Part shown: one piece after another, positions 1-47,478 of the stretch
How positions within the stretch are numbered: position 1 is the stretch's first letter
Layout: each line of letters begins with the position of its first letter
Assembly: GCA_000004985.1 (NCBI GenBank)
Contig: GG738891.1
Strand: one strand, 5' to 3'
DNA from: Naegleria gruberi
Taxonomy: Eukaryota
Length of the DNA stretch: 64,000 nt
The notes under the pieces: model-generated
Database searches by the model: none
What the model saw: the letters and a program-made list of their open reading frames with translations, nothing else
Told to the model about the DNA's origin: nothing
Made by a program: the position numbers and the translations under genes

Positions 1-1254
1 ACCACATGTGGTTCAAATTACGAGTGCAGATTAGGAACGTGCTATTTGAAAGTAGATGCAGGACTCGATGAAACATGCTTATATTACAATTCTACTTCAT
101 ATACATTCGGGGTCTGTAGGGAAAAGCTAACATGTTCAGGTGGAAAGTGTATTGGATTGACAATTTCACCACTTGGTGGATATTGTGGTCAAAACTCAAC
201 TGGAAGATATAACTGTGGCAATGGATACTGTTTCCTTGAAAAGTGTGTACCTTATGTGAGTTCTCTAATAGGAGGAAAGTGTGATGTAACTGATTCTGAA
301 GGTTTTTTCACATGTAAGAATGATGGTACCTCACCATATTGTTTCAACAACATATGTAGGACAAGAGGAAAGTTGGGCGAAAGCTGTCAACACAAATCTG
401 ATTCCTGTACCTCTCAATTAATTTGTAGGTCCATTGGAGGAGCTCCAAAAACATGTGAAAATTATGCACAAAAGAATGAAAACTGCTCATCCACTTCTGA
501 TTGTGCTACTGGATTATTGTGCCTGTATTCAAAGTGCACTAATTTGAATGGAAAATCAGTGGGAGAGGCATGTTTCTCCAACTCTGAATGTGATTCTGGT
601 TTGTGTTACAATAGCATTTGCTCACTGAATTACAATACCTCTTCATGCAGTACTGATTCTGATTGTAATATTTATGAAAATTCCAAGTGTTCCTGTGGTT
701 CTGGAAGATCTTCATCAGATTCCACATTTGGAACTTGTGCTGGTTTGAAGAGATGCAATGTTTACCAACTCATTCTTGAAATCTGTCTTTCCAATTATGG
801 AAGAGGAGCCTCTGTAACAACTATTTTTGACAGACACAGCTCCATTCACAAAGATTGTGCCAAAGAATTTTCTCAATATTATTCATGTTTGAGAATTGGA
901 ATTAGTGAAGCAGGTAATGTTCAATCTCTTTCAATTTCTGGTTTAGATGTCAACACTCAAGTTAAAGATCCTGCAGTTGTCAAGATTGCCCAATGTAATG
1001 CCTTTTTAAGTCACCATCTGTCTGTTTGCTCTGGATTTGGTGATTGCATTGCTGATGGTGTTTGTAAATGTTATCCAGGATATACTGGAACTTATTGTCA
1101 AACAATTTACACACCTCAAAAATCATCAATTATTCCACCAACAAATTCAATTGGTGGGGAAAACCGCACTGCCCTACTATCTGAAGGAAAGAAGAATACC
1201 TATTCAAACTTGTTGTGGATTGTCTTAATTTCATTGATTTTTATTCCACATTAA
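1..1254 (+). CDS. Secreted cysteine-rich protein with EGF-like modules and a GPI-anchor-like C-terminal tail; 5' end truncated by the window edge
   Basis: Frame 1 is open from base 1; the ORF-track start at 46 is TTG, not ATG. Cys spacing is regular, a C-terminal EGF-like motif CKCYPGYTGTYCQ is present, and a hydrophobic tail LLWIVLISLIFIPH precedes TAA at 1252-1254. Confidence 0.55.
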   Translation, partial: TTCGSNYECRLGTCYLKVDAGLDETCLYYNSTSYTFGVCREKLTCSGGKCIGLTISPLGGYCGQNSTGRYNCGNGYCFLEKCVPYVSSLIGGKCDVTDSEGFFTCKNDGTSPYCFNNICRTRGKLGESCQHKSDSCTSQLICRSIGGAPKTCENYAQKNENCSSTSDCATGLLCLYSKCTNLNGKSVGEACFSNSECDSGLCYNSICSLNYNTSSCSTDSDCNIYENSKCSCGSGRSSSDSTFGTCAGLKRCNVYQLILEICLSNYGRGASVTTIFDRHSSIHKDCAKEFSQYYSCLRIGISEAGNVQSLSISGLDVNTQVKDPAVVKIAQCNAFLSHHLSVCSGFGDCIADGVCKCYPGYTGTYCQTIYTPQKSSIIPPTNSIGGENRTALLSEGKKNTYSNLLWIVLISLIFIPH

Positions 1255-1390: not shown

Positions 1391-2635
1391 TTGACGAGTA
1401 GTCTATTCTTGTCACAAAAATATTTACAACAAGAAATCAAAAAAAAAATGTTGATATTACTGATTAGAATTGCTTTGGTGGCACTAGTCTGTTTGTTATG
1501 TTTAAAATTCGGTATTGCTTCACCTTCATACTTGATCGCTCCATCAGTATTTATTATAGCTCTTGATTTGTTCTATCACGTTAATCAAGAAAGAGACGAA
1601 ACAAGACATGATGAAGATGAAATAGAAAATGAATCAGTTGATGATGATAAACTTATTCAACAAGTTATTACACAAGAAGAATCTCATCAACCTGAAACTA
1701 ATGTTGAAAATAGTTTAGACGCCAGTTTACCAACAGAAACTAGTGACCATCCATTGGAGGACTTTGAAGAGCCACCTGTCAATGTGTCAGATACAAATAA
1801 TGAAGATATAAAAGGTAAAGAAGAAATTGTTTCGTCAATTTCGTTGTTGGATCTGCAAGATGAGCCTTTACAGATTGTTGAGCAAATAACAGTCACACCA
1901 TTAAATCATGATGTTTCTTCTGAAGAAGAATCTAAAGAATTGCCATTCACCATTTCAAAGAAACTAAAAACTTCTATTGAATATTTAGAAGAGGAAGAAC
2001 TTCAAAAGATTGAAGCCAATGCTGAACACTTTGAAAAAGTTGACATTCTTTTGAAAACTGATCTGAATTTCATTGAAAGAGCTGTAAATGTTAATTGTAA
2101 TGTTTTAAAGTTGCTGAAGGAAGATGAACTTTTAACTGTTTTAGAAAGATATGAATACTTGTTTGCGCAACTTGACAACATATACCAGAAGAATGTAGAA
2201 TTTGTAAAGAAAGTGCTGGAAAGAAATCGCCAAGTTTACTTGTACTTAACAGATGTTGATACTATTGCACTATTGTTAGAGGAAGAAATTATTTCTGGAA
2301 GATCTTTGGATGATTTTGTCATAAGCTCCAACTTGCTAAAACGTGTCATTCTCAAGTTGACAAAAGATCCAAAATTTTACATTGATCACAGAAATGAAAT
2401 ATTATCTCTACTGGGTGGTGATCCGTGGTTACATAGATGTTTTTTCCCATTCATTAGTGATGATAAGGAAATTGTCATTGAAGCAGTAAGGGAGGATGGT
2501 TTCAATTTACAATATGCTTCTGATCGATTGAGAGGTGACAGAGATGTTATTATAGTAGCACTAAGGAACAATCGTTTAGCAAGAAATTTCATAAGAAGGG
2601 ATTTCTATGAAAAGTATGGAGAACCTTGCTTTTAA
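1391..2635 (+). CDS. Membrane-anchored acidic protein with C-terminal DUF4116-like repeats
   Basis: ATG at 1391; a second ATG at 1448 after an A10 run may be the true start. Hydrophobic anchor MLILLIRIALVALVCLLCL, an acidic D/E-rich middle, and C-terminal repeats (EIVIEAVREDGFNLQYASDRLRGDRDVIIVALRNN) that match the DUF4116 repeat pattern. Confidence 0.5.
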   Translation: MTSSLFLSQKYLQQEIKKKMLILLIRIALVALVCLLCLKFGIASPSYLIAPSVFIIALDLFYHVNQERDETRHDEDEIENESVDDDKLIQQVITQEESHQPETNVENSLDASLPTETSDHPLEDFEEPPVNVSDTNNEDIKGKEEIVSSISLLDLQDEPLQIVEQITVTPLNHDVSSEEESKELPFTISKKLKTSIEYLEEEELQKIEANAEHFEKVDILLKTDLNFIERAVNVNCNVLKLLKEDELLTVLERYEYLFAQLDNIYQKNVEFVKKVLERNRQVYLYLTDVDTIALLLEEEIISGRSLDDFVISSNLLKRVILKLTKDPKFYIDHRNEILSLLGGDPWLHRCFFPFISDDKEIVIEAVREDGFNLQYASDRLRGDRDVIIVALRNNRLARNFIRRDFYEKYGEPCF

Positions 2636-2714: not shown

Positions 2715-5700
2715 TTAGTTCAGAAAGTAAGGAAGAGCTAACAAATCTGAAGCATTTGGTCGTTGATTTGCATCCTTTTGTAACATTTGTATCACAATTT
2801 CAATTAAATCATTCGAATATTCTCCATTAATTGATTCTTTCATTTGATTTGTTAGAATATTAACGGCACTTCCTGATTGATTTCCCAAGAGTAAATTACT
2901 TATCGAAGTTGAATAATCTCTTGTCATGATTTGGTAAATTGAAACACCCATTGAAAATATGTCAGTGTTAAATGAATAAGAACTTCCAAGAGCAATTTCA
3001 GGACTCATATCTTTACAATCTGGGTGTTAAATAGACCAATTATGTAAAAACTTACACAGTGGAGTTCCAACATAGGATTGACCTTTCATTTCTTGAAACT
3101 TTTTTGCCAATCCAAAATCTGCAATTACAATTTCAATTTTTTCTTTTGATAATTTCTTAATAAATATATTGGTTGGCTTAATATCTCTATAATTAACAAA
3201 AATATATCAAAAATTAAAGAATAATGTCTAACATACCTATGAATAATAGATAAAACATCATGAACATATTTCAGAGCACTCAAAGATTGTTTCAAAATTT
3301 GTTTCACAATTATTTCACTACAATTCTCTTTCAAAAATCTTGTCAAATCACCACATTCATAATAATCCATATCAATACAAAGTAAATTATCACTAGTAAT
3401 AAAGTAATCATTCACTTTGATAATATTTGGATGATTGATATTACTCAATTGAGATGCTTCTTTCATAATACTATTTAAATCTGTGAATGATTCAAATTTA
3501 ACAATTTTAACAGCTTTGATTTGATTTCCTTTCTTGGAATCGTTGGCTTTGAATACACTTCCAAATGCTCCTTGACCAATTCTTGTTATATTACTATATC
3601 TGGAAAACGTATCTTCGGTATCAGAAGTAACTGAACCCATCGATGATGAAATAATTCTTGATGATTCTGTTGGGAAATCTGATAATTCAATAATTTCAGT
3701 ATCTATTTTTGCAATTTCAACATTCTTATTCTTCTTTCTCTTTAACGATAACATGACTATTACAATAATAATTATTACAATAATTGTAATAATCAATAAA
3801 GTACCAACAATTGGTACTACAATAGAAATAATGAGAACAGTGGATGTGTCAACCGATGACGCCTTCTTAATTTGACAAAATTCTCCTTCAAAACCCTCAT
3901 TACATTTACAAGTATTGGTTTGGACACATTGTCCATTTCCATTACAAACATTTGAATTTGAAGAGAGAGTTCCATTACATTGTATAGGTTGACAATTACT
4001 TCCATAAAACCCTTCCAAACATACACAGGTATTATTCCATGAATTAAATGCTGAATTCTCACCACAAACTGGATAAATTTTTCGAATAAGTTTTCTGTTG
4101 TCAAACAAGAAAATTGAACCATCACTTTCCTCATATTCAACACTTGTTAAGAAGGAAACGAATGAAGTATACGTTCCTTTACCATCTCCATTGAATTTTG
4201 GATTTTCAAGTCTAACACCAGCAATATCCACAAGTAAACCTGTTTCTTTCTCATACATTCTAACAAGAGTACTGTCCAAAATAATGATATCACCATTTCT
4301 TTTTTGTTTCATAGCATAAATTTTTTCAAGCAAAGAGATACCAGCAGGCAGATTATTACCTGAATATCCACTATCTGAAGTTCCTGCAATTGTTCGCAAA
4401 TACAATTCATTTTCAGACATTATCTCAATTTTTTTAACACTAGTCGCAGTAGAGAAATAGATAGAACTTCCTTGAATTATAATATTGGTTATTGTACCAG
4501 GTTTTGTTTGATTAGTAATAGGTCCATCAGGTGAATCATTTCCGAATGTGAATTGGGCAACTCTTGTAATCATTTGAGTTGATATTTCATACTTCGCAAT
4601 GATAAAGAGAGTTGCTATAAATAAATCACCATTTGTTTCATTGACAGCTAGATAGGTATTACTTAATGGGAGAGTTGTATCAAGTCCCTTAACATTAAAA
4701 GTGAGAGTACCACATCCTTTTCCAATAATTCTTTCGAATTTCATTGTCTCTGGATCTATCCTTAATACTCTACACGCCTCCTTAACATAGATTTTCCTAT
4801 CAAAATTTGAAAATATCATAGAAGAAGCAACGTAACCTAAAGAGAGGAAATTAGGTTCATAAATATACGTATAAGGTACCATTATAGTACTTGGGCTCAA
4901 TGGGGTAGTAATACCTGTTTTTTCATCATATTTCTTCAATGATTTCGTATCTATAAAGTAAATTACCTTATTTAGCGGATCTCTTGCAAATGATGAAGCT
5001 ATTTGAATTCCAACACTTGGATTTAATCCAGCAATAGTTGAAATATTACCATTGGAAACTTGTGAAATGTAATTTGTACCTGTGAGCAATATTTTGGTTG
5101 GTTCATAACAATCGACTCTCTGAATTTGTCTGTAAAATACACATTTCACTATGTTTGAAGAATTTGTAAAATACTTACAATGCCGACTCCATTACTGGAA
5201 TATCTTCTCCACTATAACCAACAACTTCGAATGACGCATTGGAAATATTAATGCTATCCAAACCTGCAATTCTATTCAATGAAAAATTCTCAATATTCAA
5301 TTCGAATAATTTTGATGTCATTCCAATATAGAATTTACCTTCATAACAAGAAAAAAAAGTATAACCAGGTAAATCTCGACTGTACAATTGAAAAGATTGA
5401 TTACTATAATGAATAATTTCATAAAATGTTATTTGACCGTAGTATCCAAAGATAGAAGTACTGTTTGGATATCTATAATTGGGAATAACACAAAATCCAT
5501 AACTTGAAAAATATGATTTAAAAGGTATAATCGTTTGTTGATAAATCATGTTTTTGTAATAATGAAAATAACCATTAACATCTAATATATAAATTGATGA
5601 ATTAGCAAGAGAATTTCCAATTACAGAAATGGCTTCTCCATAATCTGATAATTGTGAAAAATTTCCATTTTCCATATTTAAATAGTACAGGCCTAAATTT

Positions 5701-7072
5701 GGACTAAGTTGTGATAAAATCAATAATTCACCGCTCTCAAGACAATGTAGTTCCCTTATTTGTTGTAAATAAATTCTTTGAGGAATATTTGAATAAGTTA
5801 AAAGTCTGTCACTTCCAAATACAGTAGTCATTTTTCCATTGGAAACTTTTCTAATAATATTTAATTTTTCAACAAAATAAAATTCATTCTTGTACATAAA
5901 AGGATAATTAACATTGCCAGTTTCATACATTTTCAAAGGTGAAATATTTTCACCATACGGATGATTAACTATTCCACCAGATAGAGTTGAAACCATTCTA
6001 TTTTGTAAATTAATCATTCTAAGACAATTATTCGACTTGTCAGCAATAATAATTGAATTCTGATACAGTAATAATGAAGATGGTTCATAAAATTTAATAT
6101 TCAATGAAGAATATTCTTCCAAATCACCTGAATATCCACTGCTGAATGAAGAACTTCCAATAAAGAGCTTAGTTTCACTTGATTTTGATAATTTCATTTG
6201 TAGAAAGTTGTTAGTTTGTGAGGAGGTGTAAATTTCTCCTTGTTCTGTAACAAATATTCCAAATCTTGACAAATTTAGTACTATTTCATAAAAAAGACTT
6301 ACAAATTAGATTGAGGTGAATTTTGATCAACTATTCTAAACTTTCCATTTTCATCAACTGATCTCACTCTATCAGCATCAGTAAAATAAACAATTTCATT
6401 CTTTCCATTCGAAACAACGTATAAACTCTTTGGTGAATTCAAAATCAATGAAGTTCCGTCCGCTCCGTCAATTTCCTGTTGAATTCCACTCAAATATCCA
6501 CCACCTGCAATGATTGAAAGTTTCTGTGTGGAAATTTCATACTTTTTAATGAGATTATTTCCAGTATCTGCAATGTAAATATTTCCGTTCTTTGTTACAA
6601 ACACTCCTTGTGGTTTGTTGAATGAATATTGAAGAGAAGAAACTAATTTAGTTGAATTCGAAACCATTCGAATCTTGTCATTTAAAGTATCTGCAATATA
6701 CAAGTCACCATTTAATGGATTTTGAGAAATTGAAGTTGGTGTATTAAATAGAGTTTTTAAATTTGAATAACCATCACCATTAAATCCACTCAACCCAAAT
6801 CCTGCATAAATTTCAACAATTGACATGTCGACTATTCTAAAAATCAAATGCCTTCCAACATCTGACACAAAAATATCATTGTTCAAACCAAGGCATAACC
6901 CTGTTGGTAATTGCATGTATGCATCCCGAATAGCAACTTTATCATAATTATTATTCACACCAGCCAATGTTTGAGTTTGAAAATATTCAACTTTTGACAG
7001 ACCATGGCAGCAGGAAGAAATTAATAAACATGTAAAAAAGATAAGAATCTCCTTGGTTGGCAGAGGTACCAT
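2715..7072 (-). CDS. Receptor-like protein kinase: signal peptide, NHL-repeat beta-propeller region, EGF-like modules, single TM segment, cytoplasmic protein kinase domain (multi-exon)
   Basis: ATG at 7072 gives signal peptide MVPLPTKEILIFFTCLLISSCCHG. Exons 6299-7072 and 5175-6272 carry NHL-like motifs (LYIADTGNNLIKKYE, GDLYIADTLNDKIRMV, IFVSDVGRHLIFRIV). Exon 3125-5149 carries EGF-like CxC modules (CVCLEGFYGSNCQPIQC..CKCNEGFEGEFCQ), TM VLIISIVVPIVGTLLIITIIVIIIIVIV, and the kinase N-lobe (GQGAFGSVFKA, AVKIV). A short GT..AG intron is followed by HRDIKPTNIFI..ADFGLAKK (about 3060-3180), then exon 2715-3008 (YMSPE..DIFSMGV). Small introns occur at about 6273-6298, about 5113-5170 and around 3010-3060 and 3181-3230. 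Confidence 0.75.
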
Positions 7073-7497: not shown

Positions 7498-9060
7498 ATG
7501 ATACCAAACAATCATCATACCCCAACAACAACAGTGAACAAAGATATCTCCTCCTCCGAGCAAGGACTTTATAGTCTTGGACCTAAAACACGATTAAAAG
7601 GTTTTCATAAATCACACTATTCTCCACAATTGTCAACCAGCAGCAAGCCTTCAATTATTCTTCCATCATCATCATCATCATCAGTGCTTATTAATTATGA
7701 TCCACATGATCGGGGAGAAGGCTCATCATCATCAGCACATAATATTACGAATACGAGTAGTAATACTACTCATTCATTGATTAATAATAATAATAATTTA
7801 ATTTTGGGAGATTGTGATGGAGAGGATCAACAGTGTTCAACATTATCAAATCAATCAACAATGATTTCCTCTTCGTTTGGAACTTCGTTTCTACTCTCTA
7901 ATGATTTGTTGAATAGAGTGGATGGATCAAACCGTTCCATTTACGAAATATCGAATCAATCGAGATATAATCCAAGGAATGTGGAAGATTTTGGGAAGAG
8001 TAAGATCTTGTTTCATAGAGCTTGTAAGGAGGGTTCTTTGAGGAAAGTTATTAGAATGTTGGATGACGATAATGGTTTGATAAATTCCAGATATGAGAAT
8101 GTCACTCCACTCTATGCATGTATTGAGGAGAATAGTTATGAGGTATTCAAAGAATTATTAGATAGAAAGGCAATTATTACAGAAGGATTTCTCGAAAAAG
8201 TCATTGAACGAAATGGAGAATCATGCACAAAGATTAGCTGTTTGTATTTGGCTATTCATTTGGGAAAATACACAATAGTGGAGGATTTAATGAGGAAAGC
8301 CAACTTTATGGATATCAATATTGGGAAAGTGGTCAAGAATAGACAATCTACTAAATTTAAGGAAACTCCATTGTTTTTGGCTGTTCGATTAGGAGATATC
8401 AAAATGATCAAGACACTTTTGAGCGACACTCGATTTTGGCCCCATTTCAATCTTGTACATAGTATGGTTTCAAAAAATTATGGAGACAGTATTTCCAATA
8501 CTATATTTCAAGCACTGTTTAGTATTGAGGGAAGGACATTTTTGGAAAGGGAGAGAAGGTCAAGAGATTGCTTTTTGGAAATTAAGAAAATGTACAACTC
8601 TATTGACCCACCAATTGCTTCGATTCAAGAAATTACCTCTGACATTAAGCCATTTTCTCTTTTGCATTTCAGTAGATGCTCCTATAGTGGAACGTCACTA
8701 AAAACCATCCACAGCCCTCTTTATTTGGCCATTATGAATGAAAATGATTACTTGACAAGAGAACTTGTGAGCTGCGTTCCAAACAAGCACTTTGGTGAAT
8801 TTGTTTCCAAGTCGAATGAAACCGAATCTTGCCTGTATTTGGCAATCTACAAACGAAGTATACATGTAATTATATATTTATTAAGAATTAATGCAGATAC
8901 ATTGGAAGATGTAGACAAGTTGCGAGAGTTTGCCAGTGGAGAAGGTATTCATCTTGACCATTACATCAAAGTAGCAAGATACTTTACTAATCGAATGTAT
9001 AATCTAGCTAAGGGGATTGTAGATCATTACTCTGATTTAGAAATAATTACTCAACAATAA
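7498..9060 (+). CDS. Ankyrin-repeat protein with S/N-rich N-terminal low-complexity region
   Basis: Real ATG at 7498. Ankyrin-like repeats include TPLYACIEENSYEVFKELLDRKA and TPLFLAVRLGDIKMIKTLLSD. A poly-Ser/Asn N-terminus is present. Confidence 0.6.
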   Translation: MIPNNHHTPTTTVNKDISSSEQGLYSLGPKTRLKGFHKSHYSPQLSTSSKPSIILPSSSSSSVLINYDPHDRGEGSSSSAHNITNTSSNTTHSLINNNNNLILGDCDGEDQQCSTLSNQSTMISSSFGTSFLLSNDLLNRVDGSNRSIYEISNQSRYNPRNVEDFGKSKILFHRACKEGSLRKVIRMLDDDNGLINSRYENVTPLYACIEENSYEVFKELLDRKAIITEGFLEKVIERNGESCTKISCLYLAIHLGKYTIVEDLMRKANFMDINIGKVVKNRQSTKFKETPLFLAVRLGDIKMIKTLLSDTRFWPHFNLVHSMVSKNYGDSISNTIFQALFSIEGRTFLERERRSRDCFLEIKKMYNSIDPPIASIQEITSDIKPFSLLHFSRCSYSGTSLKTIHSPLYLAIMNENDYLTRELVSCVPNKHFGEFVSKSNETESCLYLAIYKRSIHVIIYLLRINADTLEDVDKLREFASGEGIHLDHYIKVARYFTNRMYNLAKGIVDHYSDLEIITQQ

Positions 9061-16821: not shown

Positions 16822-19800
16822 TTAGTGGGTTTCCTCAGTTTGAGCAGTGGCAGCGCCAGGTTGTGTGGTTGGTTGTTGTGGTTCGACATATTCTTCGAAT
16901 TGGTGAGGTTCGAATGTCTTGACATAGGTAGTACGGATGAGTGGGTAAGGTAAAATTTCTTCAAAGAAACTGATATCCAAATGTTTGGATGTCTTGACAG
17001 TTCTATCAAGGAAAATGCAACAAGTATCGTATTGCTTTTCATAACCCTTAGTACCATTCATGTGGAGAAGAATCATGGCAGCAAACTCGGCGAATCTCTT
17101 GTAATCCTTTTCAAGTTCAGCAATCTTATTGGACTTGACACTGTGAACAGCTTGAATCAATCTGTGGAATGCAGTAATTGACAAGTGGGTATTGTTATAC
17201 CAACCTTCAAGATTGACATCATAGACGCTGTCCTTTTCTTTCCAAGTGGTATTGAGAATAGTGAGAGCAGCAAAGGCCAATGGTAAGACTTCCCAAACTT
17301 GAGATCTATCAACGAGTGGAGACAACTTCAATCTGAGAGGGTGATCAACATCAGAGAAACCACAATCAGTAGCCAAAGCGTCAATTGGAAGGAACTTGCC
17401 ATCACCATAATAATTTCTGGAATATTGTTCGTAAGCACTGTCAATGACATCATAAATAGCTGGGGCATTTCTTCTAACTGAAGATTGAAGAGCAGATTGT
17501 AAACATTGTCTGAATTCCAAAATACCACCAAGTTGAATGAGGAGTGGCATGAGTGTTTCGAGAGGAACAAGAGTTTGTCTGACCTTCTTATCCAAAACAA
17601 ACTTTTCATCATAGAGTTTGCTTTCAATATCCTTGAGGGCATTGTTGGCTTGGGACAAAACTTCTCTGATCTTTTCACTTCTTACATAAATTTCATCCAA
17701 CAAGGATTGATTCAAAGCTCTGAAACCATACGGACCAGTCAAGGTGATGAATGCCTTCAATTCATTGTAATCCAAGTAATTTTCAACATTGTAACTTTGA
17801 ATTGGAGTATTGGCAGTTGAGATGAAGGTTTGTCTGTTTGGATGGAAGAGAGTCTTATACTTTTGTGGATCTGAAACCAAATCAGTGAACCATTGTGAGT
17901 AGATTGAAATCAAGTTGGCTGGTTCTGTTGTTTGAACAACACCGAATGGTGAATCAACATAATTCAAATGCACAAAGTTATCCAAGAATGAGTTCAGAAC
18001 CAATTCTTCAGTATTGATATTGACACATTGTTCAATAATCTTTAAGGATGACATGAAAGAGTGTAATTCACTCAACAATTCTGATGGAGAAATGAACTTT
18101 GGAGTAAGAGCGTCATTCTTCATTTCCTTAGCTGTCAAATCAATAGTAGTGGCAATTCTCTTGATATACTCGGCAATGTATTCTTCGAGAACAGTTCTTA
18201 AGTATTCAACAGGGTAGAAAACATTGTCATACACAACGATTTCGTCGTATCTAGATAATGAGTACAACAATTGAGTGACATTTCTTTCCAAATCACGCAT
18301 ATCATTGATAGAATTATTTTCAAAGTGACTTTCGACACCTGGAACTGCTGGTTCTTCGATATATTGCTTGTTCTTACCATATCTACGGAGGATAGTTTGG
18401 GCAGCAACATCACCACCGATTTGATGAGTTAACATTCTGTAACCATGAGAACTGTTCAACAAATCAAGACCCTTTCTAATTCTGTCGACTAATTGTCCGA
18501 GCATTTGTTCAGCAAATTGAACTGATTGTTGACCAATTCTGTTTCTGAGGGATGGATTAAGTTGAGGGTGAATATTATCAGCATATGTGTTAAGAATTCT
18601 GATAAAAGCAGTCGAATACAAAGGTTGACTCTTTGAACCAATAAGACCTTCAGAGAAAATCTTATCAACATCAGCTCTGTAGAAGTACAATTGCTTGAGG
18701 GATCCCTTTTCGACCAATTCATCATATAAACCATCGACGTGCTTTGAGAATACAACAATCTTGGTCATGGTATTAAACAAGAGTGTCATTTCAGGCAATG
18801 TTTGTTTGAATTGATAACCGGACAGGAATGATTCAACTCTCTTCCAATTCAAACGCATGGCTTCAAAATCTTCACTATTTTGAATATCTGACATGATTGA
18901 TTCCATAATACCAGTAACTTTGGCAAGTTCAAGCTTGGCTTTATGTTCTTCGATCAATTGCCTGGCCTTATTATAATACAATCCACGAATAATCTTGAGA
19001 GAGTATTTTCTAATAACATCTCTGTGTTGCACACAAACGTACATCATTTCATCCATGAGGTAGATCATTTCACTAATCAAAGTTTCCTTAACTTCCTTGA
19101 ACTTCTTTTGAGCAGACTTTGGAACGTATCCATTGTGATGGAAATACCACATGATTTCATTTCTGGCCATTGAAATAGCAGCCAAAACCAAGTTGAATTT
19201 TGGTCCAAGCAAACCAGGTTGATCCTTCATCATGTTGAGCAAGGACTTTAATTGCAATCTGAGATAATTTCTCAATTCCTTGTGATAGTCATGACATTTT
19301 TCAGCAGCAATTTCTGCAAGTTCCTTCAATGATTTCTTTTCCTTTTTCAAATCTCCAAACTTTTTAATCATGACATATTCTTTGAAAGGATCGTGAATGT
19401 TGTAAACTTCATCACCGTAGAGTGGAATGACCAAGTTATTGGCCAAAACTCTTTGTAAGAGAATTTCATAACAACGAAGAGGAGCATCCTTGTCCTTCTT
19501 CTTGCTGACTACAACTGGTGTCATTCTTATTTGTTTTTCTGGGGCACGAGCAAGTGCATCAGGACAACAAGCATAAATAATAGCAACCCATTCTACGATA
19601 TCTTGATAACAATTCAAATACAAGTATGTTTCATCAACAGCAGGGAATGGAATTCTATCTGGTTCAGACAACATTTCCAAAGGTCTTTTAACATTCAAAC
19701 CACCAAAAGTACCTCTTTCAAATGCTGGAATGAGAGCAATGAGTGCTTTACCAATTTGATCTTGAATTGTGAACCATTTTTCTTGGAAACGAGGAATTGG

Positions 19801-20620
19801 ATCAGCAAAATCTTTAAACAATTGCCAAACTCGTTGAATGTTTGGTTCTGCTTGACCGTTCAATTTCAAATAACTCAAGTTTAACAAACAAACAATAAGT
19901 TCCTTGTCCTTAATTCTATTCAGCAACAAGATCAATTTCACATATCCAACCAACATTTGCAAATAATCATAACATGTTAAAAAGTTGACATCTTGTAAAA
20001 AATCAATATTGGCATTTGTAGACATTTCTAATATTGTTTGTTGAGCATGTTCTGTCCATTGTAACAATTCTTTAAATGTTAAATAAATTGGATGTACTTG
20101 ATTAAACAGTGTTGTCATGTTATTCAATGCCCAATCAAAGCCTTGAACCTTTTCCAATTCATCAATGGCAATATGTGGAGCATCTTTTAATAATTTAGCG
20201 AACATTTTCTTCATATCCACAGGAAGTGTGGACTTCATAATATCAGGTTTTAAATCATTATCACCAAGTTCATTCTTTATCGTATATAAACGTTGGAGGA
20301 GAGCCTCAGAATGTTGTTTTAAAACAAAAAGCTAAAATAGTTTTGTTTCGAATATATTTTGCATCAAGTAGTAGTGCAGGATAGCGTTTGATAAATAAAA
20401 ATTGAAGAGAGGAGGGATCATAGTTAGTATAAATTATTATGAATCAGAGAGTGATAAATCCATTCAATCCACACAGTGAAAAATAATTTTCATCATCATC
20501 ATTAGAATAATTAAAACGATTGTCGTTTAATACGAAATAAATTGTTGATCAACAATAGAATAATAATGTTAAAGAGGAGATGATGTGTTTGCTCTGCTTA
20601 CCTTCTCTGCTACCTTTGCC
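16822..20620 (-). CDS. NCKAP1: Nck-associated protein 1 (Nap1/Hem/NCKAP1), SCAR/WAVE complex subunit (2 exons)
   Basis: Exon1 20600-20620 MAKVAEK with donor GTAAGC. Intron 20341-20599 ends TTTTAG. Exon2 16822-20340 begins LFVLKQHSEALLQRLYTIKNELGD, matching human [30 protein letters not shown]. Internal matches include [30 protein letters not shown] (human [30 protein letters not shown]). About 1179 aa. Confidence 0.8.
20440..20505 (-). ncRNA. Candidate intronic box C/D snoRNA inside Nap1 intron 1 (speculative)
   Basis: The minus-strand intron contains AUGAUGAUGAUGA (box C UGAUGA) about 55 nt upstream of CUGA (box D). The intron (259 nt) is 3-5x longer than other introns in the window. No terminal stem or rRNA guide was verified. 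Confidence 0.2.
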
Positions 20621-36887: not shown

Positions 36888-39131
36888 TTATTGGTGAAGT
36901 GAACATTCCTTCTCGAGCATATCAAGTTTGTCATTAATGAATTTTCTAAACTCTGGATTGCTTGGAATTTGAGAAGTGTCACCTATAAAACTTGAACTGA
37001 GAATACTTTCATTCACTCTGTATGATTCTCCCTTTTCAGTTTCTCCGTGAGAGAGAAAGGCATCAATATTATTTGAAACTTTTTCTTCAATAATTGTGGT
37101 AGTATCTTCTTCTCCACAGCTACTAATTTTACTTTGCTCCAAATCTATTTCTATTAATTGACTAGATTCTTCAGGATAACCTGATTGATTATAATCTTTC
37201 CTGTCAAATAGGATTCTATAGTGGGATTCTATATCCTGTGTTTCATTCTTGTCAATAGGTTCGTAATGTTCATCCTCATTTTCGTCTGTATCTAGAGATG
37301 CAATCTTCTTCAAACCCATTTCAATCTCTTCTATTCTCTTCTTCATAACACTCTTAAAGTTAGATTCTGAATCCTCACCAAAATCAAATTTGGTAAATGA
37401 GTTTGAGTTATCATTGACCACTGAAATATTTAAATCCTTCTCTGGTCTATCAGATTTGTTGTTTTGAGATGATTTTGGAGTAAATTTCAGAATTCGTAAT
37501 TCTTCCTCTTCTATTTCTCCCCAAACTCTCTTGTATTCCTCTTGTTCAAGTAGAATATTCTTTAGACTTATATTTACAGACCTAACATTTTCGTGTGAAT
37601 CTCTGACACCTTCAGCTCTAGGTTTTCGAGGAGCGGAACTTGGCCTCTTTGGAGTTGATGAAAAAGACATTTCGTCATGTTTTGGTAAAGAACTAGTTGG
37701 TCCTCTTCCAGAAAGTGCAGATGCTGGTCTTTGATTTCTGTTTTGTGATAGAGAAGTATTCTGTTCTGCACCAGAATACTCACTTCTCCTTGAGACAACC
37801 TTTGATTTTACGTGACCATATCGTTCTCTATTCTTCTTTGCTATTTCTTCCAGAGATGATTCTTTTGGAGTTTCAAAGGATTGAGGTCTGTTATTGCATC
37901 TACTATAACTCAAAGGACTTCTGGTATTACTTCTCCTAGATGACGAAGGCGTAGTTGGTCTTGTTACTCTATTAGAAATTATTGAATCATTTTCTTTTGA
38001 TTTAACTGACTTAGGTGGTAGGTCTGAAATTGATGAAACCACAGATCGAAAGACAACACTTTTTTGAAGTTGATCATCTAGATCTTGTATTTGCTCTAAA
38101 ATAATTTTCTCTTCTTTTTCAAACGGATCAAGTGGTTTTGGGACCTTTCTCTGATTGTATGGTACAGTTTTTTTTGGAGTTTCCACTACTGCTGATTGCA
38201 CAACTCTACTCCTTGGTGCAGAAGATGGCCTTTGAAGTTTGGTTGGTGATGTTAATTTCTCTGGAGTTTTACTGACATCTGGAGCATGTTGGGAATGTTT
38301 CCTTGATGAGTTGTTCAAAATTGAGTTTTGAGATGAATGTGATTGAAATTTTTCTGGTGATCTAATCAAGTTTGGTTGGAATTGAGGTTGTTGTGTGGTT
38401 GGTCTTGCTGAAGAGGGTCTTTTTAATTTCTGAGGAGGGCTTTGTTGAGAGACTGCCAAATACTTTTCTTCCATAGTATTTGGAGAATTCTTTAGTTTTT
38501 CTTGTCTAGCCTCCACTCTCTTTCTCCTTTCAATTTCATATTGTTTCGAGTGAGGAGATAAAGGTTGGCTCACGGTATTTGGATTTAATTTAGTTGGAGA
38601 AGTAGGAGAAGTATAATTATTTGCTAAACACACTTGCTGAGATTGATCTTTAGTGACACAAGATGAAGAATTAAAGGAGCGATCAATCATGGCCTTAATA
38701 TTCATGCTTTTCAATTCTTCCATTCTTTTCAAAAGATAGGAGGCATGAATGTCCTCCGATAATTGTTTGTGTTGTTCATGAGCATAATTAGTGGCTGCTT
38801 TCCTCACCTCCGAACAAATTGTTGGATTTGTATAATGTTGTTGCTCTGGAGAGGAAGACTGACCACCAACACTCCAACTTCCACTTGAATTATTGATTCC
38901 TCTAACACCACCTGGTGAAAAACATCTACTCCTCGATGAAGAAGAACGAACAGGACTTTCTTCGTCATATTCTTGATAATTTCCATCATCATTAAAATGA
39001 AAAAGTGAATTCTGTAATTCTCGTAGTTCTTCCTTCTTTTTTCTTCTCCTAGATCTGGACTTTTCTAGTAGTGATTTTACATAGGCTTCCTCCTTAGGGC
39101 GTAAAGATGAGGGAGAGGAATTACCTTGCAT
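36888..39131 (-). CDS. Ser/Pro/Arg-rich low-complexity hypothetical protein
   Basis: 747-aa ORF with real ATG at 39131. Basic N-terminus (RSRRRKKKEE), long S/P/T-rich disordered body, acidic C-terminal part. Confidence 0.45.
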   Translation of the reverse strand: MQGNSSPSSLRPKEEAYVKSLLEKSRSRRRKKKEELRELQNSLFHFNDDGNYQEYDEESPVRSSSSRSRCFSPGGVRGINNSSGSWSVGGQSSSPEQQHYTNPTICSEVRKAATNYAHEQHKQLSEDIHASYLLKRMEELKSMNIKAMIDRSFNSSSCVTKDQSQQVCLANNYTSPTSPTKLNPNTVSQPLSPHSKQYEIERRKRVEARQEKLKNSPNTMEEKYLAVSQQSPPQKLKRPSSARPTTQQPQFQPNLIRSPEKFQSHSSQNSILNNSSRKHSQHAPDVSKTPEKLTSPTKLQRPSSAPRSRVVQSAVVETPKKTVPYNQRKVPKPLDPFEKEEKIILEQIQDLDDQLQKSVVFRSVVSSISDLPPKSVKSKENDSIISNRVTRPTTPSSSRRSNTRSPLSYSRCNNRPQSFETPKESSLEEIAKKNRERYGHVKSKVVSRRSEYSGAEQNTSLSQNRNQRPASALSGRGPTSSLPKHDEMSFSSTPKRPSSAPRKPRAEGVRDSHENVRSVNISLKNILLEQEEYKRVWGEIEEEELRILKFTPKSSQNNKSDRPEKDLNISVVNDNSNSFTKFDFGEDSESNFKSVMKKRIEEIEMGLKKIASLDTDENEDEHYEPIDKNETQDIESHYRILFDRKDYNQSGYPEESSQLIEIDLEQSKISSCGEEDTTTIIEEKVSNNIDAFLSHGETEKGESYRVNESILSSSFIGDTSQIPSNPEFRKFINDKLDMLEKECSLHQ

Positions 39132-42889: not shown

Positions 42890-43515
42890 TTGATTCTTTT
42901 TTTCTGTATTGAAATTGAATGGATCCGGCTGCTATTTTTGACATTTATTTTGATTGATGGTTCATAAAATTATGTGAATGTTCGAGCAGGTAGAGGAATT
43001 GTAAATGGGCTGAACGATGTTAATTTTCTAATTTTAATACTTGATTACAATATCTATGACACAATAAATATTTCCAAAAGCGTTCTTTGTAAAAATAACC
43101 AAAAAATCTTTCTCATTTGTGCAATTATTCCACCACTCTAATAAATTCCACAAGTGCTCAAATTCAACATCCACCTCCTCTTTATCTCAGTACAGAACCG
43201 TTCCTTAATATCTCACCAATTAAATAGTCTATTTCATATATGGGCCACTTACCATCAGGATCACACTTATCTTTTATCAGCAAGAGAACTTGGCTTCTCA
43301 AAAAAAATGAAACAACACCAGCCTTCCTCCTCACAACAACACCGGCAGTCATACAACAATAATAATACTGGCGGTAGTAGCAGTGTTATTATTGGTGGAG
43401 AGAAGGCCACACAAAATAATAGAGCAAGTGGTAATAGTACATCTGTTGAAAGTATTGCATCTGCTGGTGGTCTAATAATAATACAGTGGTAGTGGGTCAA
43501 GTATCATCATCTACT

Positions 43516-46500
43516 ATGTCGGGAAGAATGGAAAATAATAATCAAGGTGGATTTAATAGACGTTCTGTTCCAGACTTTTTTAAAAACAATAGTGAGCCAA
43601 TAAAGAAGAATAATCAGCAAGGTTTCACGAATAATGGTAGTGGTTCGAATCGAAATAATCACAGAAATACATCAGACAATGTAAATCCAAATAATAACAT
43701 GAAACCATCATCATCTAATAGTAATAATACTTCCACGAATAATTATCAACAGAAAACACATTATAAGAATAATAATTATAAAGGAAATGTTCACCAAAAT
43801 TCAGAACAAAACGATAATTACCAAAGGAAACAATACAAACATTATAACAAGCAACAAGTCAATCATCAAAACCAAACGGAGAATAGACATTCTAGTAATA
43901 TAAAACAAACACTTGATACTCACTCTAATGAACCATTTGGAGGTGGTTCCGACCAACAACTTGAACCCACATACAATAGACAAAATAAGTATACTAGACA
44001 ACCCTACAAGAAGCAGGTCTATGCTAAGCAACCTATTTCAACATCAGAGTCTGTTTCTATGGTAAATAGTAGTACATTTGGTTCTCAATCATCTACAAGC
44101 ACTATCACGTCCAATACCAGTGATCTCTCTCACTATAGTACACACCCAGAATTAAACAAGAAGATTAGATCAGAACTATCAAACAAGCAACAAGAATCAA
44201 AAGCTAAACAGTCAGGTGTTGGTGGAACTCTTTCCTACACATCTCAACTGTTCTATCCTTCCTATATGTATACTTCTAATGCGAGTAACAGTAATAATAA
44301 TTCATATATGCCTACAGTTCTAGAAGGTTGTCACTATTATGTACCACCTACTTTTTATCAGGTACCAACCTCACCAGTCGAAACCCAGAAGAAAGAAGTG
44401 ACAAAGACTCTTCCTTCACCATCAAAGAGGAAAAAGAGAGAAATTGAAAATGATTCCTCCAGTGAAGATGAAGATGATGAATCAATTTCATCAGTTGGTA
44501 GTCAAATTCAATTGAGTTTTGAAGATGATGATTATATTGTGGGATTTGCCTCATTTAATGGATCTTTCTTTTTTTGTTGGCAAAAAGCAACCAAGGAGTC
44601 AGAATCTCAAGCAAAAATAAGAGATATTCTCACATTGAGTTCCAAGTATAGTGGATCTAAACCAGAAACACTATTTTCTAAATGTATCAAGAATAAGTCT
44701 ATTTATGCAGCCCTTAAAAAGTTTATCAAGAAGTTGATCAAACAAAATCAACCTTTTAATCCATATTTGATTAATTCGCATTCATCTCTATTGATGAAAT
44801 TGTTTTTGACCTCGTCAAATACTTGGTTAGAATTTGCTTCCAACTTACCTGCTATTTCTAACAAATTTGCCAAGCTTAAGGCCAGAGAAGTTAAATTACT
44901 TCTTTCTGAATATTCTACAGAATGGAATTATTTTAGTGATATTGATTTGACAAAGGAAGAAAATATAACATCGCTTATTACTGGAGATGAGAACGAACTT
45001 GTAAAGAAATTTATGAAAAGAGTTGAAAGGGAGGACTTTTCTAAATTTAAAAGAAGATCTCATCTTCTTACATGTTCTTGGGTTTGTAAATGTCCGAATG
45101 GTAATGAAGATGTATTTAAAGAATTGCTTAAAACAATTAGAACAGTACAGCCAACACTATCATCAAGTCAAGAAAAGTTGAATCAAATATTCGAAAGAGA
45201 AAAGAACGATACAAAACCTCAGAAAATGACAATATGTGAATTAGTAGCAAAGGTAGATGATTTTGATGCAGATCTGACTAATTTCAAACTTAAAAAGCCA
45301 GAAACATCCATCTTTTCAGAGAGAAGGGTTGTTGATTCTGACTTTTCAGAAACCTTCATCAAAGAACTTTCTATTATTGTTTCTCTAAATATTTTCCAAG
45401 AGTTGAAATACAAGTATGATTTCTCTCACAAGAAACAAAAAGGTGCTGCAAATGATTTCAAGAAGCTTTACTCAATAGTTGATGTTGAGACTCAAAAGAA
45501 GAAGACAGCTTTCAATGCTAAAATCCAATCTGCATACAAAGATGAGTCATCCCAGATTTCTACATTAGAGTTAGAGGAGCACGAGAAGCTCATTCATCAA
45601 CTCATTCAATTTGTTACCTACGACAAAGAATATCGATGCTTCCAGAGGTATTATGACTTGTTAAAGACAGAAGAGGATGACATCAATAGAATGTTCGGAT
45701 GGTTCCAATTTCCGTATCAACTGAAGGCAGTGCAATGGCTAAAGAGACTAAATGCCAATATTAACTGGGTGGATATATATTTGAATAGAATTCATGCTTC
45801 ACCACATTTTGAGGAAGATATTTTAAAGATGATTGATGAGGAATGTGACAGATCTTGTAATTGGGCTAATGAGTCTAGATATTCCTTCTTAGATTATTCA
45901 GACAAAACTTTTACAATTGATAAGAAAGGTACTAAGGATTGTGATGATGCATTTACTATCCTTGATCACAATACAAATTCAATCAAAATTGCTGTCCATA
46001 TTACAGATGTTGCCTCAACAATTCTCAGAAATATTGATTTTTCCAAGAATGTACCACCTGTAGAAGAAAAGAAAGATGCAAACAAACGCTATACTGGAAA
46101 CAAATCAAAATTCAATGATCATCCAATATTCCAAAGTGCACTTTTCTCAGAAGCAGCAAGAAGAATTATGTCAATCTATATTCCAGGTGTTGAGGAAACC
46201 TATGCTCCTTGTTTCCCAAGACATTTATCTGAAGAGCTTCTCTCTTTAATTGATAAGAGACCAAAAGAAGTAATTTCTCACATCTTTATTATTTATAATA
46301 ATGGAAAGGTTGAATGTAAAGGTGTTGTGAAAGGGCTCATCCAAGTGAATCATTCATACTTTTTCGAAGAAGCTGATGAAAAAATTGATTCACCATATGC
46401 TGATCCATTCTGGAAACATTTATATGATTGTTGCTGTGCTATTCATGAAGAGAGACTTGCGCACGGAGCTAAGAAATTTACTCCTGGTGTTGTTCCACTT

Positions 46501-47478
46501 GGTGGTGTTGATTTATCACTTGATTATCAAGATGATTCTCCAAATCCAGAAATTCATGTTAATACTCATAGACAAAATCCATCCAAGTCTTCAAAAATAA
46601 TTACAGAGTTCAGTATTTTACTCAATTCTACTATGGCTAAATATTTTTATGATAACAAAATATGTGGTCTCTACAAGGAGTTTTACCAAACCTACAATAG
46701 GCTTTTACCAGAGTCTATTAAAGATATGGATATTGAGGAATTTGTTGAAGTAGCTTCAATTCTTGACCCAGAAGGAAATGAAACAAATTACCTAGCTCAA
46801 GGTAAAACTCAACAAAATGAGAACTATACTGCTCTACAAAACTTTGAGAAAGAATTGAAAAATCAAGGAAGCAGAAAGACAACTAATATTGGTAAGATTA
46901 CAACAAAACCAACCAAATTCTACCAAAATATTATTGGCGTTGAATTATATATGCAACTTTCCTCTCCTCTTAGAAGATGGCTTGATTTAGTATTACAAGT
47001 ACAACTTGTTCATCATCTTAATACAATTGAAGCTGGCATTCCATGGAAAGGTCTTGAGAGTAGTTTATTCAGTGAAGAGATTTTGCATTATTGGAGTGAA
47101 AAGGTTTCAGACAAGATCGAAACAGTCAAAGATATGGAAAAACAAGTCATGTACCATTACTTTTTATTATATTTGAAAAAGAACATGGATGCATTGAAAG
47201 GTCCATATTTATTAGATTGTGTTTCAGAAATTAACTTTAGAAAGGGTAAAAGAACGAATCACCCAAAACACAAACATAATATTGATTATGACAATCTTGT
47301 AAACAAATCAAAACCAGTCATAACTCAGCTATTGAGATTAAGATTAGTCAATTATAATTACTTTGCAATTGAAGCTTATGTCACCAGTAACATGGTTGAC
47401 ATGGACGAAATTACCTTAGTCAAGGTTGTAGATATTGATTGTTACACTCACACAATTTCTGCTGAATTAGTGCAGTAA
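43516..47478 (+). CDS. RNB-domain 3'-5' exoribonuclease (RNase II/R-Dis3 superfamily) with long N/S/Q-rich N-terminal extension
   Basis: The first real ATG of the frame is at 43516; the track start at 43486 is GTG. RNB motif I FTIDKKGTKDCDDAFTILDHNTNSIKIAVHITDVAS (D-x5-D-x-DD then VHIxDV). Motif IV-like YMQLSSPLRRWLDLVLQVQLVHHL (FTSPIRRYxDxxxHR). About 330 aa of low complexity precede. Confidence 0.75.
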   Translation: MSGRMENNNQGGFNRRSVPDFFKNNSEPIKKNNQQGFTNNGSGSNRNNHRNTSDNVNPNNNMKPSSSNSNNTSTNNYQQKTHYKNNNYKGNVHQNSEQNDNYQRKQYKHYNKQQVNHQNQTENRHSSNIKQTLDTHSNEPFGGGSDQQLEPTYNRQNKYTRQPYKKQVYAKQPISTSESVSMVNSSTFGSQSSTSTITSNTSDLSHYSTHPELNKKIRSELSNKQQESKAKQSGVGGTLSYTSQLFYPSYMYTSNASNSNNNSYMPTVLEGCHYYVPPTFYQVPTSPVETQKKEVTKTLPSPSKRKKREIENDSSSEDEDDESISSVGSQIQLSFEDDDYIVGFASFNGSFFFCWQKATKESESQAKIRDILTLSSKYSGSKPETLFSKCIKNKSIYAALKKFIKKLIKQNQPFNPYLINSHSSLLMKLFLTSSNTWLEFASNLPAISNKFAKLKAREVKLLLSEYSTEWNYFSDIDLTKEENITSLITGDENELVKKFMKRVEREDFSKFKRRSHLLTCSWVCKCPNGNEDVFKELLKTIRTVQPTLSSSQEKLNQIFEREKNDTKPQKMTICELVAKVDDFDADLTNFKLKKPETSIFSERRVVDSDFSETFIKELSIIVSLNIFQELKYKYDFSHKKQKGAANDFKKLYSIVDVETQKKKTAFNAKIQSAYKDESSQISTLELEEHEKLIHQLIQFVTYDKEYRCFQRYYDLLKTEEDDINRMFGWFQFPYQLKAVQWLKRLNANINWVDIYLNRIHASPHFEEDILKMIDEECDRSCNWANESRYSFLDYSDKTFTIDKKGTKDCDDAFTILDHNTNSIKIAVHITDVASTILRNIDFSKNVPPVEEKKDANKRYTGNKSKFNDHPIFQSALFSEAARRIMSIYIPGVEETYAPCFPRHLSEELLSLIDKRPKEVISHIFIIYNNGKVECKGVVKGLIQVNHSYFFEEADEKIDSPYADPFWKHLYDCCCAIHEERLAHGAKKFTPGVVPLGGVDLSLDYQDDSPNPEIHVNTHRQNPSKSSKIITEFSILLNSTMAKYFYDNKICGLYKEFYQTYNRLLPESIKDMDIEEFVEVASILDPEGNETNYLAQGKTQQNENYTALQNFEKELKNQGSRKTTNIGKITTKPTKFYQNIIGVELYMQLSSPLRRWLDLVLQVQLVHHLNTIEAGIPWKGLESSLFSEEILHYWSEKVSDKIETVKDMEKQVMYHYFLLYLKKNMDALKGPYLLDCVSEINFRKGKRTNHPKHKHNIDYDNLVNKSKPVITQLLRLRLVNYNYFAIEAYVTSNMVDMDEITLVKVVDIDCYTHTISAELVQ

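Follow-up and report, generated by a model that had tools for sequence, protein, structure and literature searches.

Receptor kinases are thought to have several origins, among them the animal receptor tyrosine kinases (RTKs) and receptor Ser/Thr kinases (RSTKs), the plant receptor-like kinases (RLKs) and the transmembrane kinases (TMKs) of Entamoeba, whose kinase domains are TKL-like. Bacteria provide a further point of comparison, as PknD of Mycobacterium tuberculosis and PknD-like kinases such as the NHL-kinase P0079 have a Hanks-type Ser/Thr kinase, one transmembrane (TM) helix and an extracytoplasmic NHL beta-propeller. Among protists, the Entamoeba histolytica TMKs (EhTMK) form protist-specific multigene families of type I receptor kinases (PMC2880585), in which a single TM helix connects a Cys-rich/EGF-like ectodomain to a kinase in the cytoplasm. 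Here, we describe a gene at positions 2715-7072 of a 64,000-nucleotide (nt) stretch of Naegleria gruberi contig GG738891.1 (assembly GCA_000004985.1), referred to below as the window, and compare its product with these and other systems. The product is probably a lineage-specific type I single-pass receptor Ser/Thr kinase with a multi-propeller NHL-EGF ectodomain, presumably activated by oligomerisation and belonging to a family restricted to Naegleria.

The gene runs on the minus strand from an ATG at 7072 to a stop codon at 2717-2715, as read from the sequence and its open reading frames (ORFs), of which three long and two short ones lie here in different frames. Removal of four GT..AG introns of 38, 49, 50 and 45 nt joins five exons into a coding sequence of 4176 nt that stays in frame and encodes 1391 amino acids (aa), in exact agreement with the coordinates and five-exon model of the initial annotation. 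Intron 1 is defined by the single GT..AG pair able to join both open frames. Its 38-nt length agrees with the public model and with the paralogues, and the resulting junction (...QSNL|FGIF) aligns colinearly with QSNLYGI in the N. gruberi proteins D2VYK1 (P0002) and D2VSK9 (P0394). An alternative acceptor for this intron, the TTACAG ending at 6245, was rejected, as its frame meets a stop after 11 codons. The kinase domain is split by two short introns, as had been proposed: intron 3 falls in the Arg codon of HRD, and its removal restores IIHRDIKPTN, while intron 4 lies inside GTPL|YMSPE. At the other end of the protein, the C terminus encoded by exon 5 matches the ends of P0002, P0394, P0402 and others (...PYFK/PYFRN), and D2VYK1 runs on as GTPLFMSPEIALGSSYSFNTDIF..., exactly like exon 5 here. 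Alignments in a single high-scoring segment pair extend over all four junctions for N. gruberi D2VSK9 (45% identity), N. lovaniensis C9374_010785 (P0396; 32%) and N. fowleri FDP41_002843 (P0402; 30%). A further relative, 46% identical to aa 469-1315, is encoded by a metagenome contig that probably comes from another Naegleria-like amoeba (L001; ENA ERZ929261, contig k127_198699, 1-2719, GC 32%). This relative has introns at the positions of introns 2 and 4, with intron 2 likewise placed after ...ENSAL and opened by a GTAAGT donor; it lacks intron 3 and reads IIHRDIKPTN uninterrupted.

The gene can be found in public databases as N. gruberi NAEGRDRAFT_71566 (XP_002673404.1, UniProt D2VRF4), a "predicted protein" that was the top match of the ectodomain search. 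D2VRF4 is identical to the 1391-aa model over all overlapping parts and, at 1204 aa, differs from it at three places. It begins at the internal Met83 and so lacks the signal peptide, it splices 16 residues of the TM helix away as a false intron, and it reads through intron 4 (3011-3055) to end in GTPLCKFLHNWSI, losing the last exon and the kinase C-lobe. The public models of the paralogues D2VYK1 and D2VSK9 likewise lack the TM helix. By our reading, this gene and several of its paralogues are wrongly modelled in public databases, and automated surveys would miss them as receptors, since a signal peptide, a piece of the TM helix or the final kinase exon is absent from the models. A literature search returned no paper on the gene, its paralogues, NHL repeats in Naegleria or Naegleria receptor kinases. 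The receptor family is undescribed, and its members are deposited as uncharacterised predicted proteins.

These departures of the public model could also be taken to mean that the gene model is an artefact, in which a secreted NHL protein and a kinase gene have been wrongly fused, or that the locus is a decaying, non-functional copy. The five-exon model is predicted from sequence, and several N. gruberi models consist of a kinase only (P0121, P0122 and P0123, corresponding to D2VDH4, D2VEV7 and D2V4R8), with 53-79% identity to the kinase described here. However, these kinase-only models start exactly at the juxtamembrane 'IISSS', right after the SDFP motif, and are therefore probably truncated annotations of further receptor genes. 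Exon 3 is one ORF of 1.9 kb that leads from propeller blades through the two EGF modules, TM helix and juxtamembrane segment into the kinase N-lobe, and because it is uninterrupted the fusion of ectodomain to kinase holds whatever splice calls are made. None of the five exons is broken by a stop, no catalytic residue is lost, and the architecture recurs colinearly in three species. We consider an artefact or pseudogene very improbable; judged from its sequence, the locus 7072..2715 is a single real gene encoding a predicted receptor kinase, not two.

The N terminus (aa 1-24) resembles a signal peptide, with a 14-residue hydrophobic core at aa 9-22 (ILIFFTCLLISSCC) followed by CHG|LS, a putative cleavage site with small residues at -3/-1 (C-H-G). 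A single TM helix of 32 residues is followed by a KRKKNK stop-transfer segment, and because of this flank the positive-inside rule predicts a type I topology. Signal peptide and TM helix had both been called in the initial annotation and were recovered here, as were the three domain types it named, since Pfam detects NHL, EGF and Pkinase above their cutoffs. With a C-terminal kinase on the cytoplasmic side of one TM helix, a positive-inside flank and a signal peptide, the protein is predicted to be a type I single-pass receptor kinase. Ahead of the membrane, aa 1003-1037 form a complete six-Cys EGF module (EGF_2, 24.4 bits against a cutoff of 22.1, aa 1010-1037), which places it among the EGF-like domains. 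The earlier description of Cys-rich EGF-like modules fits this one in full, but the module before it (aa 974-998) is partial, with four Cys only.

The Pkinase profile matches aa 1130-1389 over its whole length (positions 1-263 of 263; E 1.6e-53, 182 bits against a cutoff of 31.7). The G-loop (IGQGAFGSV, 1136-1144), K1160, E1176, HRDIKPTN (1249-1256), DFG (1273-1275) and GTPLYMSPE (1290-1298) can all be identified, and the domain is read as an RD-type protein kinase with every catalytic motif, predicted to be competent. It is assigned to the Ser/Thr type because its catalytic loop has the 'KPTN' form. S1287 lies in the activation loop, within SY(A/V)GTP, at what we take to be the position of PAK1 T423 and MST1 T183. 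Among the best 60 matches in the PDB, the nearest solved kinases are NEK1, ULK3, STK25/24 (MST3), MST4 and CDPKs (E ~1e-28); NEK1 is the top match (E 3.4e-28), with no more than 2 bits between it and ULK3, STK25 and STK24. The GTPxYMSPE motif resembles that of NEKs; the architecture of the whole protein is unlike theirs, NEKs being usually cytoplasmic with C-terminal coiled coils. A grouping with TKL/receptor kinases, raised in the initial annotation, is not borne out: no TKL kinase is found among these best 60 solved relatives (NEK, ULK, STE20-like and CAMK/CDPK kinases), and their lone tyrosine-kinase entry is an EGFR chain, with no stretch that passes by itself. Together, the HRDIKPTN loop and the best 60 solved relatives argue against membership in the receptor tyrosine kinases or the TKL group (TGF-beta receptor, plant RLK/Pelle). 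The Naegleria receptor kinases form, on sequence comparison, a private branch of the eukaryotic Ser/Thr kinases.

The ectodomain had been described as about 650 aa of NHL repeats in two exons. NHL repeats are present (Pfam NHL, E 1.1e-15, 57.2 bits against a cutoff of 20; TEN_NHL, 29 bits against 27.1), but they can be detected by sequence only in the first ~250-400 aa, while the blade region covers ~925 aa (aa ~50-975) over three exons, the rest of it being divergent propeller that is visible solely in AlphaFold models and orthologue alignments. A blade hidden Markov model (HMM) trained on canonical NHL repeats gave four strong matches (aa 56-91, 112-138, 154-192 and 214-244), about ten weak ones at aa 259-409 (259-275, 327-353, 385-409) and 635-971, and no match at aa 410-634. 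At the columns of this HMM-silent middle region, the orthologues carry the classic NHL linker AG..G(Y/F)SGE..A..S...P. The AlphaFold model of aa 1-1131 (mean predicted local distance difference test, pLDDT, 61.7) is an all-beta chain of 17-18 four-stranded units, confident for aa 50-250 (pLDDT 77-97 over 50-190) and 660-990 (70-91). A second model, of aa 341-741 with family sequences added (pLDDT 66.6, predicted TM-score 0.67), likewise consists of beta structure throughout and shows about seven sheets of four strands. The models suggest an ectodomain of about 17-18 four-stranded blades, the four or five nearest the N terminus being canonical NHL repeats. The simplest reading is a set of three propellers of NHL descent with six blades each, canonical in the first and divergent in the other two; assignment to the NHL-repeat beta-propellers holds for the first propeller only, and six-blade closure of the second and third is presumed. 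Foldseek comparison of the whole-ectodomain model retrieved the NHL domains of SOQ1 (7djj, TMt 0.62) and NHLRC2 (6g7w, TMt 0.63), as well as multi-propeller receptors, namely the BT4663/BT4673 sensors, teneurin and teneurin-like proteins, and the propeller-EGF arrays of LRP2/4/6.

The latter group offers useful comparisons. Teneurins share extracellular EGF repeats and an NHL beta-propeller with the Naegleria protein (Foldseek matches 9ifo, 6fb3, 7bam and 9g2f), but they are type II proteins with a YD-repeat shell, a toxin-like C terminus and no kinase. Pfam found no YD/Rhs or toxin domain in the 1391-aa protein; only its NHL and EGF parts match and its predicted orientation is type I, which argues against placing it among the teneurins. 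The Bacteroides hybrid two-component sensors BT4663/BT4673 and the LRP5/6-type arrays, also top Foldseek matches, use tandem propellers as the ligand-binding extracellular or periplasmic part of a single-pass signalling protein. This likeness is at the level of fold only (TM-score 0.16-0.33, 9-11% identity), and the outputs differ, BT4663 having a histidine kinase and LRP6 lacking an enzyme. Such comparisons bear on an alternative in which the protein serves primarily in adhesion or phagocytosis, with an ectodomain that binds surfaces, prey bacteria or other cells, much like teneurin or LRP ectodomains with their partners, and a kinase that couples to the actin machinery, a role proposed for Entamoeba TMKs in phagocytosis, rather than sensing a soluble ligand. 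Foldseek sets the ectodomain beside teneurin(-like) and LRP-type propeller-EGF arrays, the best Pfam EGF and NHL models are teneurin ones, and kinase-less NHL-EGF-TM proteins such as P0004 exist in Naegleria. Entamoeba PATMK, moreover, is cited among the references of PMC4053784 as a TMK of phagocytosis. However, the TM-scores to teneurin and LRP are low (0.12-0.22), and particulate and soluble ligands are not distinguished by these results. A role in adhesion or phagocytosis is compatible with a receptor kinase activated by oligomerisation, not exclusive of it; as the primary function, we judge it unlikely.

Relatives of the gene can be found in number. The exon 3 translation, searched exhaustively with HMMER against 1.84 billion representatives, gave 82 matches below 1e-30, many of which cover blades, EGF, TM helix and kinase in one stretch, and all matches whose cluster bears a name are from Naegleria. 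Word-indexed searches with the cytoplasmic part and with the middle ectodomain returned short proteins only and missed the known long paralogues; they are given no weight for absence outside Naegleria. The gene is one of at least 13 in N. gruberi that have the same TM-juxtamembrane-kinase module, and further members occur in N. fowleri and N. lovaniensis. The N. gruberi relatives are D2VSK9, D2VYK1, D2VPM5 (2807 aa), D2VMZ5, D2VGC0, D2VCE7, D2VNU7, D2VUG2, D2VK55, D2VI53, D2V423 and D2V8B1; those of N. fowleri are FDP41_002843, FDP41_013523 and FDP41_011216, and N. lovaniensis has at least five genes. By Pfam, most of the relatives contain NHL/TEN_NHL, usually EGF_TEN/EGF_2, and a C-terminal Pkinase. 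A TM helix lies 85-140 residues upstream of the C-terminal kinase in ~40 of the 51 kinase-bearing sequences tabulated, and an N-terminal hydrophobic segment is frequent too in the full-length models. Between the TM helix with its K/R flank and the kinase, members throughout the family have an (S/T)DFP motif, DPFSRY and a Ser-rich stretch. At least 15 members conserve DPFSRY, SDFP and the Ser of SY(A/V)GTP in the activation loop, along with every catalytic motif. Identity to the product of this gene is 48-73% for the kinase domains and 20-57% for ectodomain segments, and a conserved kinase with fast-diverging ectodomains is the pattern expected of a receptor repertoire with different specificities. 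The initial annotation had raised a lineage-specific receptor class; with some 40 proteins of the same layout, every named one from Naegleria, the best reading of the sequences is indeed a lineage-specific multigene family, restricted to Naegleria as far as its members bear names.

Variants of this layout were also observed. In one relative, the TM-juxtamembrane-kinase module is found with RCC1 repeats instead of NHL, and another is named 'GPS domain-containing' (P0361/P0397 = N. gruberi D2V8B1; P0409 = N. fowleri FDP41_011216). The kinase-less NHL-EGF-TM protein P0004, from N. fowleri, ends in a short cytoplasmic tail.

With the family in hand, the locus can be compared with the closest described kinases. 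The initial annotation likened the architecture to that of PknD. The two have their domain types in common, in inverted topology: PknD has an N-terminal kinase and one six-bladed C-terminal propeller, and lacks EGF modules and a signal peptide, whereas here a signal peptide, ~18 blades, EGF modules and a TM helix come before the kinase. The kinase is 30% identical to that of P0079. Because of the inverted topology and this kinase identity, the likeness to PknD is read as a convergent domain combination of independent origin, and the sequence argues against membership in the PknD-type bacterial sensor kinases. An origin by horizontal transfer would instead have a bacterial PknD-type sensor kinase acquired with its NHL-kinase combination inherited as a unit. 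Bacterial proteins with Pkinase and NHL do exist (P0079), and the ectodomain has its best non-Naegleria matches in bacterial NHL proteins (from Acidobacteria and others), at 22-30% identity. The order in P0079, however, is kinase-TM-NHL against signal peptide-NHL-EGF-TM-kinase here, its kinase falls outside the 48-73% seen within the Naegleria clade, and the nearest solved kinases (NEK, ULK, STE20, CDPK) are eukaryotic. The gene also has four spliceosomal introns, a GC content that agrees with that of the host window, and EGF modules, which are a eukaryotic feature. Topology, kinase identity and introns all speak against transfer of a whole PknD-like bacterial gene, and inheritance of the combination as a unit has in our view the slightest of chances. 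The NHL propeller by itself may still have come from bacteria.

The EhTMK of Entamoeba resemble the Naegleria family in that many copies are truncated or mis-annotated; they differ in their ectodomains, which are built of CXXC/Cys-rich repeats and not of propellers. No specific sequence kinship to Entamoeba kinases was seen in the search with the cytoplasmic part, where an E. histolytica kinase reached only E 1.5e-18 and 29% identity. Plant RLKs, for example the wall-associated kinases with their EGF ectodomains, show a similar lineage-specific expansion, a conserved RD kinase and rapidly diverging ectodomains, and the plant receptor-like proteins (RLPs) parallel P0004 as kinase-less paralogues that share the ectodomain. 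However, plant RLKs belong to the RLK/Pelle (TKL) clade and have other ectodomain types, whereas the Naegleria kinase is nearest to NEK1, ULK3, MST3/4 and CDPK.

A mechanism can be proposed for the protein as a receptor kinase. The cleaved signal peptide would send the N-terminal ~1025 aa to the cell surface, where the partial and the complete EGF module would serve as a stalk below the propellers, and the TM helix with its K/R stop-transfer segment would leave the last ~310 aa on the cytoplasmic side. On binding a ligand or surface, the propellers could gather or re-orient the receptors, and the kinases could then trans-phosphorylate the activation loop at S1287 as well as the Ser-rich juxtamembrane stretch, turning downstream signalling on. 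Candidate ligands are bacterial prey components, glycans, in analogy to BT4663, and cell-cell contact, in analogy to teneurins.

Several points weigh against this account. The case for activation by oligomerisation is an analogy to other single-pass receptor kinases, and to our knowledge no ligand is known for any NHL-kinase, PknD included. Signal peptide and topology are predictions from sequence rules only, and the relatives that show colinearity are predicted proteins too. Model confidence is low for the middle of the ectodomain, aa ~410-660 (pLDDT <50 in the aa 1-1131 model, 51-79 in the aa 341-741 model), Foldseek on the aa 341-741 model returned generic propellers only (TM-score 0.35-0.44), and the three six-bladed propellers are something we infer, since the count rests on strand numbers.

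The window as a whole has an AT-rich composition (30-38% GC) and a content of typical eukaryotic genes, including Nckap1, SET/Pre-SET, RNB, ankyrin and LRR proteins, several of which are listed in Table 1 with the features of the receptor gene. At the start of the window, the initial annotation had reported an EGF-like neighbour, and the Cys-rich ORF at 46-1254 (+ strand), which is cut by the window edge, does contain one EGF_2 match (E 3.3e-5) and has a hydrophobic tail at its C terminus; over 37 aa, its EGF module shares 46% identity with that of the receptor. A second, unrelated Ser/Thr kinase gene lies at 49388-50821 (+ strand; 477-aa ORF, Pkinase E 3e-66), with 30% identity to the receptor's kinase domain. 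The 747-aa ORF at 36888-39131 (- strand) has no Pfam match at E <= 1e-4, and a tRNA scan of the window found none.

Table 1 Coordinates of the receptor kinase gene features and of other genes in the window
Feature	Position (nt)	Strand	Residues (aa)	Remarks
Exon 1	6303..7072	-	1-256 plus 2 nt	signal peptide and canonical NHL blades 1-4
Signal-peptide-like N terminus	7001-7072	-	1-24	
NHL blades 1-4	6332-6907	-	56-247	Pfam NHL/TEN_NHL, blade HMM, AlphaFold
Intron 1	6265..6302	-		38 nt, GTAAGT...AAG, phase 2; TACTAA branch-like motif 10 nt before AG
Exon 2	5179..6264	-	257-619	NHL-like blades 5-7 and divergent middle blades
Intron 2	5130..5178	-		49 nt, GTAAGT...ACAG, phase 2
Exon 3	3237..5129	-	619-1250	single continuous ORF; third propeller to kinase N-lobe (HRD His)
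Third propeller	4067-5008	-	~660-973	within exon 3
EGF modules	3875-4066	-	974-1037	within exon 3
TM helix	3743-3838	-	1050-1081	within exon 3
Juxtamembrane segment	3599-3742	-	1082-1129	SDFP motif and Ser-rich stretch; within exon 3
Intron 3	3187..3236	-		50 nt, GTATGT...ATAG, phase 2, in HRD Arg codon
Exon 4	3056..3186	-	1250-1294	catalytic loop, DFG, activation loop
Intron 4	3011..3055	-		45 nt, GTAAGT...AAAG, phase 1, inside GTPL|YMSPE
Exon 5	2715..3010	-	1294-1391	kinase C-lobe, end ...LALPYFLN, stop codon
Protein kinase domain	2724..3598	-	1130-1389	interrupted by introns 3 and 4
DUF4116 protein	1391-2635	+		single long ORF
Ankyrin-repeat protein	7498-9060	+		single long ORF
Nckap1/Nap1 of SCAR/WAVE complex	16822-20238	-		single long ORF; 1138 aa, E 0
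RNB exoribonuclease	43486-47478	+		single long ORF
SET/Pre-SET methyltransferase	50847-53243	-		single long ORF

In a wider reading, which we put forward tentatively and as possible rather than likely, Naegleria may have invented a modular receptor-kinase system of its own. In such a system, a private Ser/Thr-kinase clade and a fixed TM-juxtamembrane module (SDFP/Ser-rich) would be combined with interchangeable ectodomains (NHL, NHL plus EGF arrays to 2800 aa, RCC1 and GPS-containing), and kinase-less NHL-EGF-TM proteins might act as co-receptors, in parallel to the RLKs and RLPs of plants. The NHL part could derive from bacterial NHL proteins, and might recognise bacterial prey or, in N. fowleri, host surfaces. 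The receptor kinase described here would add a further instance in the Heterolobosea, with another kinase clade and multi-propeller NHL ectodomains, and so an independent data point on how surface-to-kinase signalling is assembled. Its practical value lies in re-annotation and in the surface and kinase biology of N. fowleri: the family is present in this lethal brain-eating pathogen, where its members would be surface-exposed, lineage-specific proteins with a druggable kinase.

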